Positions 2,837 to 43,118 of a stretch of DNA of 43,118 nt are shown piece by piece. The first letter of the stretch is position 1. The number at the start of each line of letters is the position of its first letter. Made by a program: the position numbers and the translations under genes. The notes under the pieces are model-generated. The model made no database searches and was not told where the DNA came from. It worked only from the letters and a program-made list of their open reading frames with translations. The stretch lies in the IMG/VR virus record IMGVR_UViG_2541047857_000011; one strand, written 5' to 3'. Source of the stretch: a virus. Taxonomy: Duplodnaviria > Heunggongvirae > Uroviricota > Caudoviricetes.

Positions 2837-4050
2837 TATTTTTCAACCTCTGACAGGGGTAAGTAATGAGATGTCTGTAATGTCAAACTCTCTATCTCAA
2901 AGGAAATGTTGCTGATATTTTGACCTGCAAATTGCGGATGCCACTCAGCGCCAGGGAATAACATTTCCGCAGAAGTAGCAACTATAGGGTCAATAGCATT
3001 AAGATAATGTAACTTATCAGGTGCGCTGTGTAACAGTAACCACTGCAACTCCACTGAAGGATTTGTAAAATGTTCTAATAAATGAAAGTTATTATGTAGT
3101 ACGCTTAGTAAAAAACTGGTTTCGTATACTTCCGTTACATATTTCCACCCCTGATATTCAGGTGTATTTTCATAAACAATACCCATACCTTCACAATCAC
3201 TATGTCGAACTGCTTGTGGTGATAATAGTTGCAAAAGAGACAAAACATCGTCCGCATATTTTTTAACTGGATGACGATTTTGCTTACCTTTTATTTGATC
3301 AATTTCAAGTGAATCACCAACAACATTGAGAGCAATAGTAACATGAGGAATATTATTATTATCACGCAAACTGAATAACCGTAATTTATGTTGCTCAATT
3401 TGATTTGCATAATACTCACCATAACCACCGGTAAGATTTTTTCGATCATCAAACTGGCCTACGCAATGTTGCATATGCCATGATTCATAAGCCATTTCAC
3501 GACGAAGGTTCGAATGACTGGCATCAAACTCAACAATTTTTCCGTCTGGCACATCAAGTATTGACTTTACAGTATTTTGTTCACTCGGCTGCCACCCTTT
3601 CTCGCGTCGTTGAAGCATCTTTTCATGCTCTTCTTCACGCATTCTGAACGCAACGTAGCAGGTTATGCGCTGTAGTTTTGATTCCAGACGGGTACCACAT
3701 TTCCTGGAAAGAAATTCCACCAACTCCCGTTCTTTGGTTAATATTTGTTGATGATCGGTTTCGATATAATAAAGTGTCGCAGTTGATACTGAGGCAGTAT
3801 TAAACTTCGATACCAGCCATTCCGGGATTACATCATCATTTTTATTAAACAGTGAATATTCTGCAAGCGAGTTAATTTGTTGCACCATTGGAAAGTCACT
3901 AATTAGCCATCGATAAAAATGGTTGAGTAACCATTTTTGGATGGTCTCATTATCCTGGCGAAACAGACTTCTTTGCAAAATTGCTGTTTTTACTTCCGGG
4001 GCATTAATTACATCCCTTGCATTATAATTCTGGTGAATATTTCCAGTCAT
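2836..4050 (-). CDS. Hypothetical protein, 404 aa, first gene of the AT-rich operon
   Basis: Long ORF preceded by an AT-rich promoter-like region (4051-4270); translationally coupled to the downstream gene. Contains an HMQHCVGQ...YGEYY segment; no family assigned confidently. Confidence 0.55.
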   Translation of the reverse strand: MTGNIHQNYNARDVINAPEVKTAILQRSLFRQDNETIQKWLLNHFYRWLISDFPMVQQINSLAEYSLFNKNDDVIPEWLVSKFNTASVSTATLYYIETDHQQILTKERELVEFLSRKCGTRLESKLQRITCYVAFRMREEEHEKMLQRREKGWQPSEQNTVKSILDVPDGKIVEFDASHSNLRREMAYESWHMQHCVGQFDDRKNLTGGYGEYYANQIEQHKLRLFSLRDNNNIPHVTIALNVVGDSLEIDQIKGKQNRHPVKKYADDVLSLLQLLSPQAVRHSDCEGMGIVYENTPEYQGWKYVTEVYETSFLLSVLHNNFHLLEHFTNPSVELQWLLLHSAPDKLHYLNAIDPIVATSAEMLFPGAEWHPQFAGQNISNISFEIESLTLQTSHYLPLSEVEK

Positions 4051-5899: not shown

Positions 5900-5983
5900 T
5901 TAATTTCGATTATTTTTCCCGGATGGAAAATTCTTAGAAACCGATCACATACAGCTGCATTTATTAAGGTTATCATCCGTTTC

Positions 5984-6070
5984 GCTGAAAAACATAACCC
6001 ATAAAATGCTAGCTGTACCAGGAACCACCTCCTTAGCCTGTGTAATCTCCCTTACACGGGCTTATTTTTT
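5984..6070 (+). ncRNA. cyaR: CyaR (RyeE) Hfq-dependent sRNA
   Basis: Sequence GCTGAAAAACATAACCCATAAAATGCTAGCTGTACCAGGAACCACCTCCTTAGCCTGTGTAATCTCCCTTACACGGGCTTATTTTTT matches cyaR as I remember it, ending in its terminator hairpin and U-tract; TATCAT -10-like element at 5971-5976. Confidence 0.85.
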
Positions 6071-6071
6071 A
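6044..6071. repeat. Prophage att core, ogr-proximal copy, overlapping the cyaR 3' end
   Basis: AATCTCCCTTACACGGGCTTATTTTTTA is repeated exactly at 42446-42473 and contains the reverse complement of the 27-bp P2 att core AAAAAATAAGCCCGTGTAAGGGAGATT. Confidence 0.85.
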
Positions 6072-6133
6072 CGCGTAACACAATGAAATAAAAGGATTTA
6101 TTTCTGGTCACGTCCACACATTGACCACATCGA

Positions 6134-6158
6134 CAAAAAAGCCCCTCGACTGAGGGGC
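6134..6158 (-). terminator. Rho-independent terminator downstream of ogr
   Basis: Hairpin GCCCCTC-GACT-GAGGGGC followed on the minus strand by TTTTTTG. Confidence 0.6.
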
Positions 6159-6171
6159 TTCCTGTTTGTAA

Positions 6172-6390
6172 TTACATCCACATAATTTGCTGCCCTGACG
6201 GCAACGGGTGCGGTCTTACGGCGTGGACTTCTCCCGGCTTCACGATGTATCGCTGTACCGACTCATAAGTGATGAATGTGGCGCTGCAATTCACGTTCTG
6301 ACACTGGTGATAACGCTCTTTTGTCGTGTCAGTGATATAGCGGCTTGTACGCGCATGTGCGGCATGCTGGCATAAAGGACAATGAAACAT
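6172..6390 (-). CDS. ogr: P2 Ogr late-gene transcriptional activator (zinc finger), 72 aa
   Basis: Translation MFHCPLCQHAAHARTSRYITDTTKERYHQCQNVNCSATFITYESVQRYIVKPGEVHAVRPHPLPSGQQIMWM matches P2 Ogr. Start set at the ATG at 6388-6390, downstream of the track's longest ORF. Confidence 0.9.
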   Translation of the reverse strand: MFHCPLCQHAAHARTSRYITDTTKERYHQCQNVNCSATFITYESVQRYIVKPGEVHAVRPHPLPSGQQIMWM

Positions 6391-6471
6391 CGCGAGCACC
6401 TCTTCCGGTTTTGTTGATGGTGCCATTTTAGTTAATTTATCCTTATAAAACAAACAGATAAATAAATTACA

Positions 6472-23903: not shown

Positions 23904-24316
23904 AGTTCCCGCCCCTCAAGACGCTGACGACAGGCTTTACGTATCAGCCGGAAAAACAGCGACGCCACAAGATAAATCAGCGCGGTAAAAATCCACCCGG
24001 CAGCGACCAGCGAGATAAACGTCGCCACCATCACCACCAGAGCCGCCGCCCGTCTGCGCCACGGCACCGGCTGCAAAAACAGCGACGTGACAATCTTCAC
24101 GGCCAGCGATTCCGGCGGCAGCTCCCGCCCGTAGCGTTCCAGCACATACTCCGTGGCATACACGCCGACACCACCGGCAACCACACAGATAACCGTCGCC
24201 AGAATCGCCCAGGTGGCGACAAAACTGACGGCCACGCTCTGCGGGTAAATCAGGGACAGTGCCAGCATCAGCGCCAGCGACACGTTCAGCATCAGTGAAA
24301 GGGATAATTTCTTCAT
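23891..24316 (-). CDS. lysA: Lysis regulatory membrane protein (P2 LysA-like)
   Basis: 141 aa with multiple TM helices, between K and lysB. Confidence 0.75.
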   Translation of the reverse strand: MKKLSLSLMLNVSLALMLALSLIYPQSVAVSFVATWAILATVICVVAGGVGVYATEYVLERYGRELPPESLAVKIVTSLFLQPVPWRRRAAALVVMVATFISLVAAGWIFTALIYLVASLFFRLIRKACRQRLEGRELCQS

Positions 24317-24330
24317 GGTGTTTACTCCGT

Positions 24331-24828
24331 TTAAGCCGGTACGCCGCCGGCGGTACGCCAGACGGTGACCAGTTTTTCCAGTGAATGCTCACGCTGACCG
24401 TAACCGGCACCCGGCAGGGACGCCCAGATATTGCGACAGCGTGAAATGGCGCGCTCAATGCGTCCCGCCCGGATGTCATCCAGTGCACCGCGTTCGCGGA
24501 TCAACTGAATGGAGAGCCTGTCCTGTGACAACGGACTGAAATCCGGCAGGGCAAGCTGTTTGCGGTAGTGCGGCCAGAACAGGTAAAGCTGCTGATAGCG
24601 ACCGGAGGCCGTGGATTTTTCACCGCGACGGTTAAACACCTTCGCCGGTCGGCCATGCGCGAACGGGTGGTCACTGTAGTCGGTGAAAATTTCCGGCTTT
24701 CCGTCCAGTCCGGTGACTATCACGTCATAGCCCCGGTTTTTCGTCAGCGGATGATTCGCCGTCCCTTCCGACACGGCCAGCATGTCGAGAAAGGCGGCGA
24801 TATTCTGATGCGTGTTAATTACCGGCAT
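24331..24828 (-). CDS. K: Endolysin (P2 gpK lysozyme-like)
   Basis: 165 aa starting MPVINTHQNIAAFLDMLAVSEGT; synteny Y-K. Confidence 0.85.
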   Translation of the reverse strand: MPVINTHQNIAAFLDMLAVSEGTANHPLTKNRGYDVIVTGLDGKPEIFTDYSDHPFAHGRPAKVFNRRGEKSTASGRYQQLYLFWPHYRKQLALPDFSPLSQDRLSIQLIRERGALDDIRAGRIERAISRCRNIWASLPGAGYGQREHSLEKLVTVWRTAGGVPA

Positions 24829-41356: not shown

Positions 41357-42366
41357 ATGGCAATCAAAAAACTCGATGATGGTCGATATGAAGTGGACAT
41401 CCGCCCTACTGGACGTAATGGAAAACGCATCCGTAGGAAGTTTGATAAGAAAAGCGAAGCTGTCGCTTTCGAGAAATACACGTTGTACAACCACCACAAT
41501 AAAGAATGGCTATCAAAACCAACAGACAAGCGACGTCTGTCGGAGCTGACACAGATCTGGTGGGATTTAAAGGGTAAACACGAAGAGCATGGGAAATCTA
41601 ATCTTGGAAAAATTGAAATCTTCACAAAAATAACGAATAACCCATGCGCATTTCAAATTACGAAATCGCTTATCAGCCAGTACTGCGCCACCCGAAGAAG
41701 TCAGGGTATTAAACCTTCGAGTATCAATCGTGATTTAACATGTATTAGCGGCATGTTTACAGCCCTGATTGAAGCGGAGTTATTCTTTGGTGAGCACCCT
41801 ATCAGAGGGACAAAAAGGCTTAAGGAGGAAAAACCAGACACAGGCTATCTCACGCAGGAAGAAATTGCCTTACTGCTTGCTGCTCTTGACGGCGACAACA
41901 AAAAGATTGCGATTCTTTGCCTGAGTACTGGAGCACGTTGGGGAGAAGCAGCTCGTTTGAAAGCAGAAAATATCATCCATAACCGCGTCACGTTTGTTAA
42001 AACGAAAACAAACCACGCACCGTCCCGATCTCAGAGGCTGTTGCCAAAATGATCGCGGATAACAAACGAGGTTTTTTATTCCCTGATGCTGATTACCCTC
42101 GCTTCAGACGAACAATGAAAGCAATAAAACCGGATTTGCCAATGGGGCAAGCCACACATGCACTAAGGCACAGCTTTGCCACTCATTTCATGATTAATGG
42201 AGGAAGTATTATCACGCTACAACGGATACTAGGTCACACGCGGATTGAGCAAACTATGGTTTACGCTCATTTTGCGCCAGAGTACCTTCAGGACGCCATT
42301 TCTCTTAATCCGCTAAGAGGTGGTACTGAGGCCGAGAGTGTCCACACAGTGTCCACAGTAGAGTAA
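41357..42366 (+). pseudogene. int: P2-type tyrosine integrase, frameshifted (two overlapping ORFs of 231 and 105 codons)
   Basis: N-terminal ORF ends ...VTFVKTKTNHAPSRSQRLLPK. The next frame encodes ...PRTVPISEAVAKMIADNKRGFLF...HALRHSFATH...LGHTRIEQTMVYAH (box II). The frames join if one base is restored near 42014. Confidence 0.75.
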
Positions 42367-42445
42367 CGTTTAAGGGCTTTCAGTGGTAATTTATGCCGCT
42401 CAAACCCGCATTGTACCGTTGAAAGCCCCTACTGGTGACACCCTA

Positions 42446-42473
42446 AATCTCCCTTACACGGGCTTATTTTTTA
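42446..42473. repeat. Prophage att core, int-proximal copy
   Basis: Exact 28-bp repeat of 6044-6071. Confidence 0.85.
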
Positions 42474-42800
42474 TGCATAAGCCCTATCCCTGGTCACCGT
42501 CTTCCATTGACCACATCGATAGAATCCTCCTTCATAGCACGATGCTTTTCACTTATCGACATCGTGCTCGCACAGGTTCCGGTTACGCACAGCCAGAACG
42601 CGCATGTTTGACGCTTACCAAAAAATGAACCTAAAGCATTGGAACATTTTTGACATCATTTTCTGATGGCTGCATAAAATAAAAATTCTGCTTTAGTTTC
42701 ATCTATCTGTTTGTCATTATTACTCACATTCAATAATGGTGTTGAAGAATATCCCATCACAGATAAAATAAATATGTGCATGGTAGTCTTGAATCTATTC

Positions 42801-43118
42801 TCACTCTCCACATTTGAATGTCAGACGAGCGACGCCATGTAATCCTGCACCTTCTGTCTTCAGGTCAACTATCTGCATTTTTTTGCCCTGAGTAACACAG
42901 AAATGAACTGCATCATTTTTTACTATATTTTCTGCACCAGATATTCTACCCCTGGCTAAAGAAGCTTCGGCTTCGGTGTAGTATTGGTTATCGAGTTTAC
43001 GCTGAATATTACTTTTATATGCAAGACCAAATTTACCGATACTTGTCTCATCATTATGTACAGCACACCCAGACATAAGAAAAACACTAATTAATGATAT
43101 AGCAGCTATCTTTTTCAT
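42801..43118 (-). CDS. yegR: Lipoprotein-like small protein (YegR-like), 105 aa
   Basis: MKKIAAISLISVFLMSGC signal peptide with lipobox; conserved position downstream of the cyaR/ogr prophage site. Identity inferred from size and synteny. Confidence 0.6.
   Translation of the reverse strand: MKKIAAISLISVFLMSGCAVHNDETSIGKFGLAYKSNIQRKLDNQYYTEAEASLARGRISGAENIVKNDAVHFCVTQGKKMQIVDLKTEGAGLHGVARLTFKCGE

Follow-up and report, generated by a model that had tools for sequence, protein, structure and literature searches.

Reuse of attachment sites at the 3' ends of RNA genes is well established, as is the decay of prophages to stubs bounded by attachment cores, and the remnant at the cyaR site of E. coli K-12 is a textbook case. 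The known cryptic P2 remnant of this strain, PR-X, consists of ogrK and of yegZ, a fragment of gpD. In the nomenclature of P2, the ogr side of the attachment site is called P and the int side P'.

The P2 site of E. coli C, locI, has been placed at position 2165238 of MG1655, the position of cyaR (PMC3448106), and ryeE, which is the same gene as cyaR, has been noted as a known phage target (PMC3603311). The arm repeats, which are the sites of the N-terminal domain of Int, have the consensus tgTGGaCa (PMC3448106). Here we describe an occupied cyaR site in which the bacterial DNA beyond the prophage resembles a phage arm. We think it probable that the bacterial arm of P2 locI is the fossil of an ancient P2-family integration whose surviving core has been reused.

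The attachment site and its resident prophage

The window, by which we mean the whole stretch of 43,118 nt that was analyzed, is a piece of E. coli chromosome with trhP (yegQ), cyaR, a 36.4-kb P2-like prophage and then yegR. The sRNA gene cyaR (RyeE; 5982-6067, plus strand) is matched over its full length by Rfam family RF00112 at 100.7 bits, and a search of Rfam over the whole window returned CyaR alone. Two identical 27-nt cores, AATCTCCCTTACACGGGCTTATTTTTT, flank the prophage at 6044-6070 and 42446-42472, and the left part of the core is formed by the last ~24 nt of cyaR. The ogr-proximal copy completes cyaR and is the attR of the prophage in P2 nomenclature; the int-proximal copy is its attL and corresponds to the cyaR 3' end in an unoccupied site. 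The core overlaps the cyaR terminator and does not differ from the core that the phage P2 record annotates as attP, and by this identity the attachment site here is P2 locI, at the cyaR 3' end.

The resident prophage has its ogr beside the core on the cyaR side and its int beside the core on the yegR side. Its ogr (6172-6390, minus strand) encodes 72 aa, with a translation that begins MFHCPLCQHAAHARTS. The integrase gene (41357-42366, plus strand) is split by a 4-nt deletion near 42006 into ORFs of 231 aa (41357-42052) and 105 aa (42049-42366). Compared to the intact 1014-nt int of the ATCC 11775 prophage, which occupies the same site, it differs by 16 substitutions and by the absence of one AAAC unit from a short tandem repeat. 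The resident int is probably a pseudogene, and with int broken, the excision of this prophage may be blocked. Within the int 3' end, at 42338-42358, the Int arm-type repeat GTGTCCACA of the P' arm occurs twice, corresponding to the P2 feature 'Int, P' arm' (24470-24496).

More generally, insertions at the cyaR 3' end are frequent across Enterobacteriaceae, which makes it a hot spot. The distance between cyaR and yegS is ~3.2 kb in Salmonella enterica and ~0.55 kb in many Enterobacter. Enterobacter bugandensis has kept a stub resembling the ogr terminator at the cyaR 3' end, and in E. albertii a truncated P-arm stub is followed by >3 kb of other DNA.

A degenerate P-arm Int site beside the int-proximal core

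The annotated P2 genome has the Int P arm, the IHF site and the core, followed by the Cox sites and the P' arm, which is the order expected. In the resident prophage, the Int arm-type binding site of the P arm is found at 6104-6133, and 28 of these 30 nt make up the P2 protein-binding site 'Int, P arm' (24293-24320 of NC_001895.1; GGTCACGTCCACACATTGACCACATCGA in the orientation of the window). The IHF-site region of the same arm, at 6071-6103, aligns to the IHF protein_bind feature at 24324-24357 of that record. Read on the minus strand, 6104-6133 has two direct repeats, TGTGGTCA and TGTGGACG.

The original prediction held that the 30 nt beyond the int-proximal core repeat this phage arm with the same 17-nt internal spacing, and this is borne out. 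The pattern CTGGTCAC-N9-TTGACCACATCGA is present at both 42490-42519 and 6104-6133, and in both copies the second block begins 17 nt after the first. Ungapped identity is 24/30, with only 3/9 in the 9-nt spacer, and in a repeat search the pair is lengthened to 40 nt with 75% identity. When the two flanks are aligned locally the score is 38, compared to 18.5 ± 2.4 for 500 dinucleotide shuffles, none of which reaches 38. Chance resemblance, or an artefact of low complexity, might be suggested by the shortness of the segment and its poorly matching spacer, but we give this next to no credence: besides the shuffling result, the two copies are colinear and do not change sides relative to the core, and two other lineages, described below, independently keep other parts of the same arm.

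The likeness between the two flanks starts at the core itself and runs on for 8 nt beyond it (ACGCGTAA / ATGCATAA), after which the right-hand copy has a 16-nt gap. The gap removes the AATGAAATAAAAGG region, which belongs to the IHF site, and the arm starts 25 nt from the core in the bacterial flank, compared to 40-41 nt in eight prophages. On the minus strand the flank arm reads TCGATGTGGTCAATGGAAGACGGTGACCAG, in which the repeat TGTGGTCA is intact and the second repeat (TGTGGACG in the phage) is disrupted. Judged by its sequence, 42490-42519 is a degenerate copy of a P2-type Int arm-binding site, that of the P arm, and 42473-42519 as a whole reads as a decayed P-arm remnant made up of 8 arm-like nt, the 16-nt deletion and the Int-site remnant. 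By the naming used for P2, with P on the side of ogr and P' on that of int, the B arm is the chromosomal flank toward yegR, and the phage arm that it resembles is P, which lies to the same side of the core.

Beyond the arm, we find nothing of ogr. The following ~100 bp had been proposed to carry Ogr-like fragments on the minus strand. With the 30-nt segment excluded, the best DNA score between 42520-42800 and 6134-6420 is 21 on the same strand, which 37/500 shuffles reach, and 16 on the opposite strand, which 465/500 reach. Six-frame protein alignment of the flank to the resident Ogr gives a best score of 32, compared to 28.4 ± 4.5 for shuffled DNA (66/300 reach it); this best match is on the plus strand, and the minus-strand frames score only 21-23. 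The fragment cited as 'HAR.S' is the tetrapeptide HARS in a frame broken by stop codons. When the whole flank was compared with the whole prophage by blastn and tblastx, the arm segment (E = 0.006) was the only significant match. An ogr remnant in the flank is ruled out by these DNA, six-frame protein and blastn/tblastx comparisons, all of which stay at chance level, and aligning the two flanks with each other likewise gives no significant similarity outside the arm segment.

A comparison of 42446-42640 with deposited phages showed no likeness beyond the core, apart from two records that contain the flank. The rest of the common flank, 42520-42626, is non-coding and has no detectable phage homology. 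Two small ORFs in the flank, of 10 and 22 aa, were set aside, as inspection showed that neither their stops nor their residues are conserved in K-12. The conserved flank has an inverted repeat at 42536-42568 (AGCACGATG...CATCGTGCT), with no T-run after it on either strand; the K-12 copy has two extra complementary bases on each side, giving a longer stem. Across 42300-43118 there is no terminator-like site, promoter-like sites occur at the level of shuffled sequence, and the minus-strand fold of the region is unremarkable (z = -2.5).

The flank in E. coli and the cyaR-yegS interval in other species

The 152 nt of flank at 42475-42626 are found in 5411/5426 complete E. coli genomes at 92-100% identity, and at unoccupied sites the flank joins the 27-nt core directly. 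A synthetic empty junction of cyaR, core and flank is covered over at least 80% of its length in one place by 4572 genomes, and most of these matches are a single unbroken piece of 354-355 nt. In strain M16807 the empty junction is present at 100% identity, with yegQ, yegR and yegS annotated and no prophage between them. The segment at 42490-42519 therefore belongs to the locI bacterial arm of essentially all E. coli, and it occurs in prophage-free strains that have no ogr, an observation that the original prediction had itself named as refuting it. In K-12, PR-X begins at the cyaR core, includes a complete P arm and is closed by a truncated second core; it sits between cyaR and the common flank, which then reads ...CTACACGGGCTTATTTTTTTATGCATAAGCCCTATCTCTGGTAACCGTCTTCCATTGACCACATCGATAGAATCC....

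These observations bear on the idea that a recent P2-like occupant of this strain decayed to an arm and an ogr pseudogene, and that a second phage then took the regenerated core. The arm-like 30 nt are real and K-12 proves that such remnants form at this site, and yet there is no ogr-like DNA or protein signal. The flank adjoins the core at unoccupied sites of nearly all E. coli, so it was not left by a previous occupant of this strain. Nor is it the counterpart of the K-12 ogrK scar, given that the ogrK/yegZ remnant lies on the cyaR side of the same flank. We regard a recent occupant as scarcely credible. What survives of the original prediction, an older P2-like scar whose core was used again by a second phage, is an earlier integration and the use of the surviving core; the ogr remnant, the strain-specific occupant and the kinship with ogrK fall away.

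We then compared the cyaR-yegS interval among species by scanning one genome per species with a cyaR-internal 20-mer, which gave at least 120 loci; E. fergusonii and E. marmotae were outside this sample, and E. ruysiae and E. albertii were unreadable past the element in the site. In most of these representatives the start codon of yegS is found ~130-200 nt downstream of where the 20-mer match begins. Measured from the cyaR end, yegS is ~85 nt away in most other Enterobacteriaceae examined, E. whittamii and Escherichia sp. E1V33 among them; in these two, GCC(T)CACGACTTTCATCCTGTTCTGAC... comes directly after the core, and yegS next. Among the matches listed, yegR is near cyaR only in E. coli, Shigella and one further genome, L099. 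As yegS comes right after cyaR in most other species, the ~1-kb spacer between cyaR and yegS in E. coli, with yegR in it, is by this comparison an insertion. Its G+C content is 37.5%, compared to 43% in the left chromosomal flank and 50% in the prophage.

L099 is JAATUR010000014.1, 'E. coli SCPM-O-B-8794', which is labelled E. coli and is a separate species representative; in trhP-adjacent DNA it is ~93% identical to K-12, as distant as named Escherichia species.

The insert of L099 starts with the complementary part of the arm, ATACGTAACCAATTGAATTAAAAGATTTGTTTCTGGTTACG, which comprises the IHF region and the start of the Int site, the rest being lost; it matches the prophage in colinear position (E = 3e-4). 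E. albertii has a third arm stub, cut after ...TTTATTTCTGATCGCGTCCAC. Complete arms, standing 40-41 nt past the core, are found in Citrobacter, Enterobacter and E. ruysiae within P2-like prophages; the arm sequence is absent from the unoccupied cyaR sites seen in other species of Citrobacter and Enterobacter. That the arm is present in prophages of several genera and absent from unoccupied sites makes it a property of the phage, from which the bacterial copies are derived.

The direction could in principle be reversed, with an imprecise excision having brought the P arm of P2-like phages out of the E. coli chromosome. In favor of this, 3' gene ends of host origin are indeed present in phage attP sites, and the likeness here extends 8 nt past the core. 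Such an origin is nonetheless very unlikely in view of the fixed spacing at which the complete arm, IHF site and both repeats included, is conserved in prophages of three host groups and of the arm-free unoccupied sites in two of the same genera. Moreover, the P' arm within int repeats a motif of the same type, the bacterial copies are partial and mutually differing subsets of the phage arm, and related species are without the whole yegR segment.

Past the core, the first ~90-140 nt cannot be aligned between E. coli and L099. From ~42564 on the two are orthologous, with yegR ~90% identical. The non-coding parts of the insert are 50-70% identical, compared to 93% in the adjacent core DNA. The common flank ends at 42626, and the AT-rich segment of 174 nt that follows downstream of yegR (42627-42800) belongs to the old insert; it is kept in 945/5426 E. 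coli genomes and in L099 and is deleted in K-12-like strains, so that the old insert is polymorphic for this deletion.

The insert ends on the right in a core-like 27-mer, placed exactly at the point from which the sequence is again homologous to the outgroup flank. In L099 it reads AATCTCTCTTATGCAGACTGACGGTTT and matches the outgroup form, AATCTCCCTTACGCAGGCTTATTTTTT, at 20/27; in E. coli it reads AATCCTCCATACTTGAACTGACTTTTT and matches at 17/27. Combining the two, 24/27 positions match, and the remaining three differences are common to both. At this fixed position the binomial P is ~3e-6 for L099 and ~4e-4 for E. coli. Over its first 21 nt the L099 copy matches at 17/21, the best in the whole insert on either strand, and the maximum over 300 shuffles is 15. 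This decayed right core is at 3946-3972 of locus L002 and at 2099-2125 of the K-12 locus L001; in the coordinates used here it would be at 43420-43446, ~302 nt beyond the end of the window. The insert thus has a direct repeat of the core at its two ends, the left one intact and the right one, outside the window, decayed. From E. coli by itself (17/27) the evidence for a putative right core is weak, and the case is carried by one sister-lineage genome together with the exact position. Immediately to the left of the decayed core, E. coli matches the int-side arm and core start of the prophage at 29/38, a level that ~10% of shuffles reach and that is at most suggestive of a P' arm remnant.

Inside this att-bounded insert, yegR (42801-43118, minus strand) encodes a lipoprotein-like orphan of 105 aa. 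The insert has kept no phage gene, and nothing in it is like int, ogr or other genes of the resident prophage. Precomputed tags assign YegR to the Pfam family PF27694 and name no other family, and the protein is almost confined to Escherichia; a Pfam scan of YegR gave nothing meaningful. A phage origin of yegR drew no support from the searches: PHROGs, the phage collection and IMG/VR gave only matches of at least 94% identity, and those inspected were at the edges of prophage predictions or in a chromosomal fragment deposited as phage. Matches so close, and so placed, are chromosomal flank rather than true phage homologues.

PHROG 21109 is essentially YegR (E = 6e-72), and yegR is found at ≥95% identity in 80 IMG/VR contigs, in most of them at the extreme end, as host flank taken into prophage predictions and from there into a phage protein family. 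Distant YegR homologues of 45-52% identity occur in unrelated, non-phage settings. One, in Enterobacter, shares an IS-rich island with genes for an omptin and for an MFS transporter; another enterobacterium has its homologue in a chromosomal spacer, beside a gene of the uracil-DNA-glycosylase family (PF03167) near dnaG/rpoD. In its distribution, yegR behaves as a small itinerant orphan gene.

History of the site and comparison with known systems

We infer the following order of events for the ancient integration that we favor. The starting state, in which yegS and its promoter region directly follow cyaR, is the one found in most other Enterobacteriaceae. A P2-family element would have entered by Int at the 27-nt core, giving the arrangement cyaR-core-P arm ... 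P' arm-core-yegS, either once, before E. coli and the L099 lineage parted, or as related elements separately in each. One ancient event and two separate acquisitions of related elements would fit the divergence of the non-coding insert equally well. Deletions would then have cut the element to the ~1 kb seen now, which comprises an arm stub, non-coding DNA, yegR and AT-rich DNA. Of the two cores, the left one is unchanged, presumably kept as the cyaR terminator, and the right one, which would be without selection, has decayed. The intact core stayed attB, and later P2-like phages at this site are represented by the ogrK/yegZ remnant of K-12 and by the 36.4-kb prophage here. Because the first ~90-140 nt cannot be aligned and the rest is orthologous, the arm stubs may postdate the yegR insert and could stem from later, independent cycles of integration and deletion over it.

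The remnant in the flank is most likely an inert fossil that would have no present function, given that its IHF site is deleted, that it lies 16 nt nearer the core and that its second Int repeat is broken. It could instead be a functional Int arm-type site beside attB that aids the capture or retention of P2-like phages, for example by adding to the preference of P2 for locI or by altering excision from attL. The arm-type repeat TGTGGTCA is intact, and 42499-42516 is invariant in 33 distinct E. coli flank sequences. Against these stand the defects just named, and 7/30 variable columns compared to ~1/3 in the neighboring DNA is a weak trend. In addition, the copies of Shigella and K-12 have substitutions and an indel in the motif, L099 has lost this part of the arm and kept another, and for heterobivalent integrases the binding of arm sites is described solely in attP, with attB matching the core (PMC3448106). 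We consider a functional arm unlikely. It is tempting to speculate that the P2 landing site is itself phage-made, the cyaR-yegS spacer and yegR being cargo of a P2-family element or satellite that used the same core, with a flank arm that is predicted still to bind Int and so to bias locI preference or attL excision; this, too, strikes us as improbable.

With the arm read as a fossil, phage-like DNA just outside a prophage boundary need not signal a recent earlier occupant, and here it is the normal empty site. The data suggest that the bacterial arm of locI and the uncharacterised yegR lie within ~1 kb of fossil DNA that an ancient integration left at the cyaR 3' end. In the literature searched, which did not cover the original locI papers, we found no prior description of arm homology in the locI flank, and the interpretation of this arm and the yegR spacer as a fossil may be a new point. 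It has practical consequences for prophage-boundary callers and for sets of phage protein families, as the flank enters both (PHROG 21109 and the 80 IMG/VR contigs). The value of the case is local and not conceptual, and the biology is ordinary.

Compared to PR-X of K-12, the remnant described here has the same attachment site, the same orientation with the ogr side by cyaR, and the same course of integration followed by internal deletion to a core-bounded stub. PR-X, however, has an intact ogr, a D fragment and a full P arm and is found only in K-12-like strains, whereas the segment here is ~45 nt of decayed arm with no phage gene, is fixed across E. coli and lies on the yegR side of PR-X. 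With the P arm of P2 attP, the flank shares homology to the annotated Int site, its side of the core and one repeat that fits tgTGGaCa. It differs in having no IHF site, in standing 25 and not 41 nt from the core, in its degenerate second repeat and in the lack of an ogr terminator after the arm, and in that it is located in chromosomal DNA at unoccupied sites.

The closest general parallel is with the hot spots at the 3' ends of tRNA and sRNA genes, where selection on the RNA gene maintains the gene-proximal core, which is used again, and decay affects the distal core and the interior. The cyaR site illustrates how selection on an sRNA terminator can keep one att core usable through repeated integration and decay. 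There is no difference in principle between these hot spots and the locus described here; what is added is one more case, that of the locI bacterial arm and the yegR spacer.
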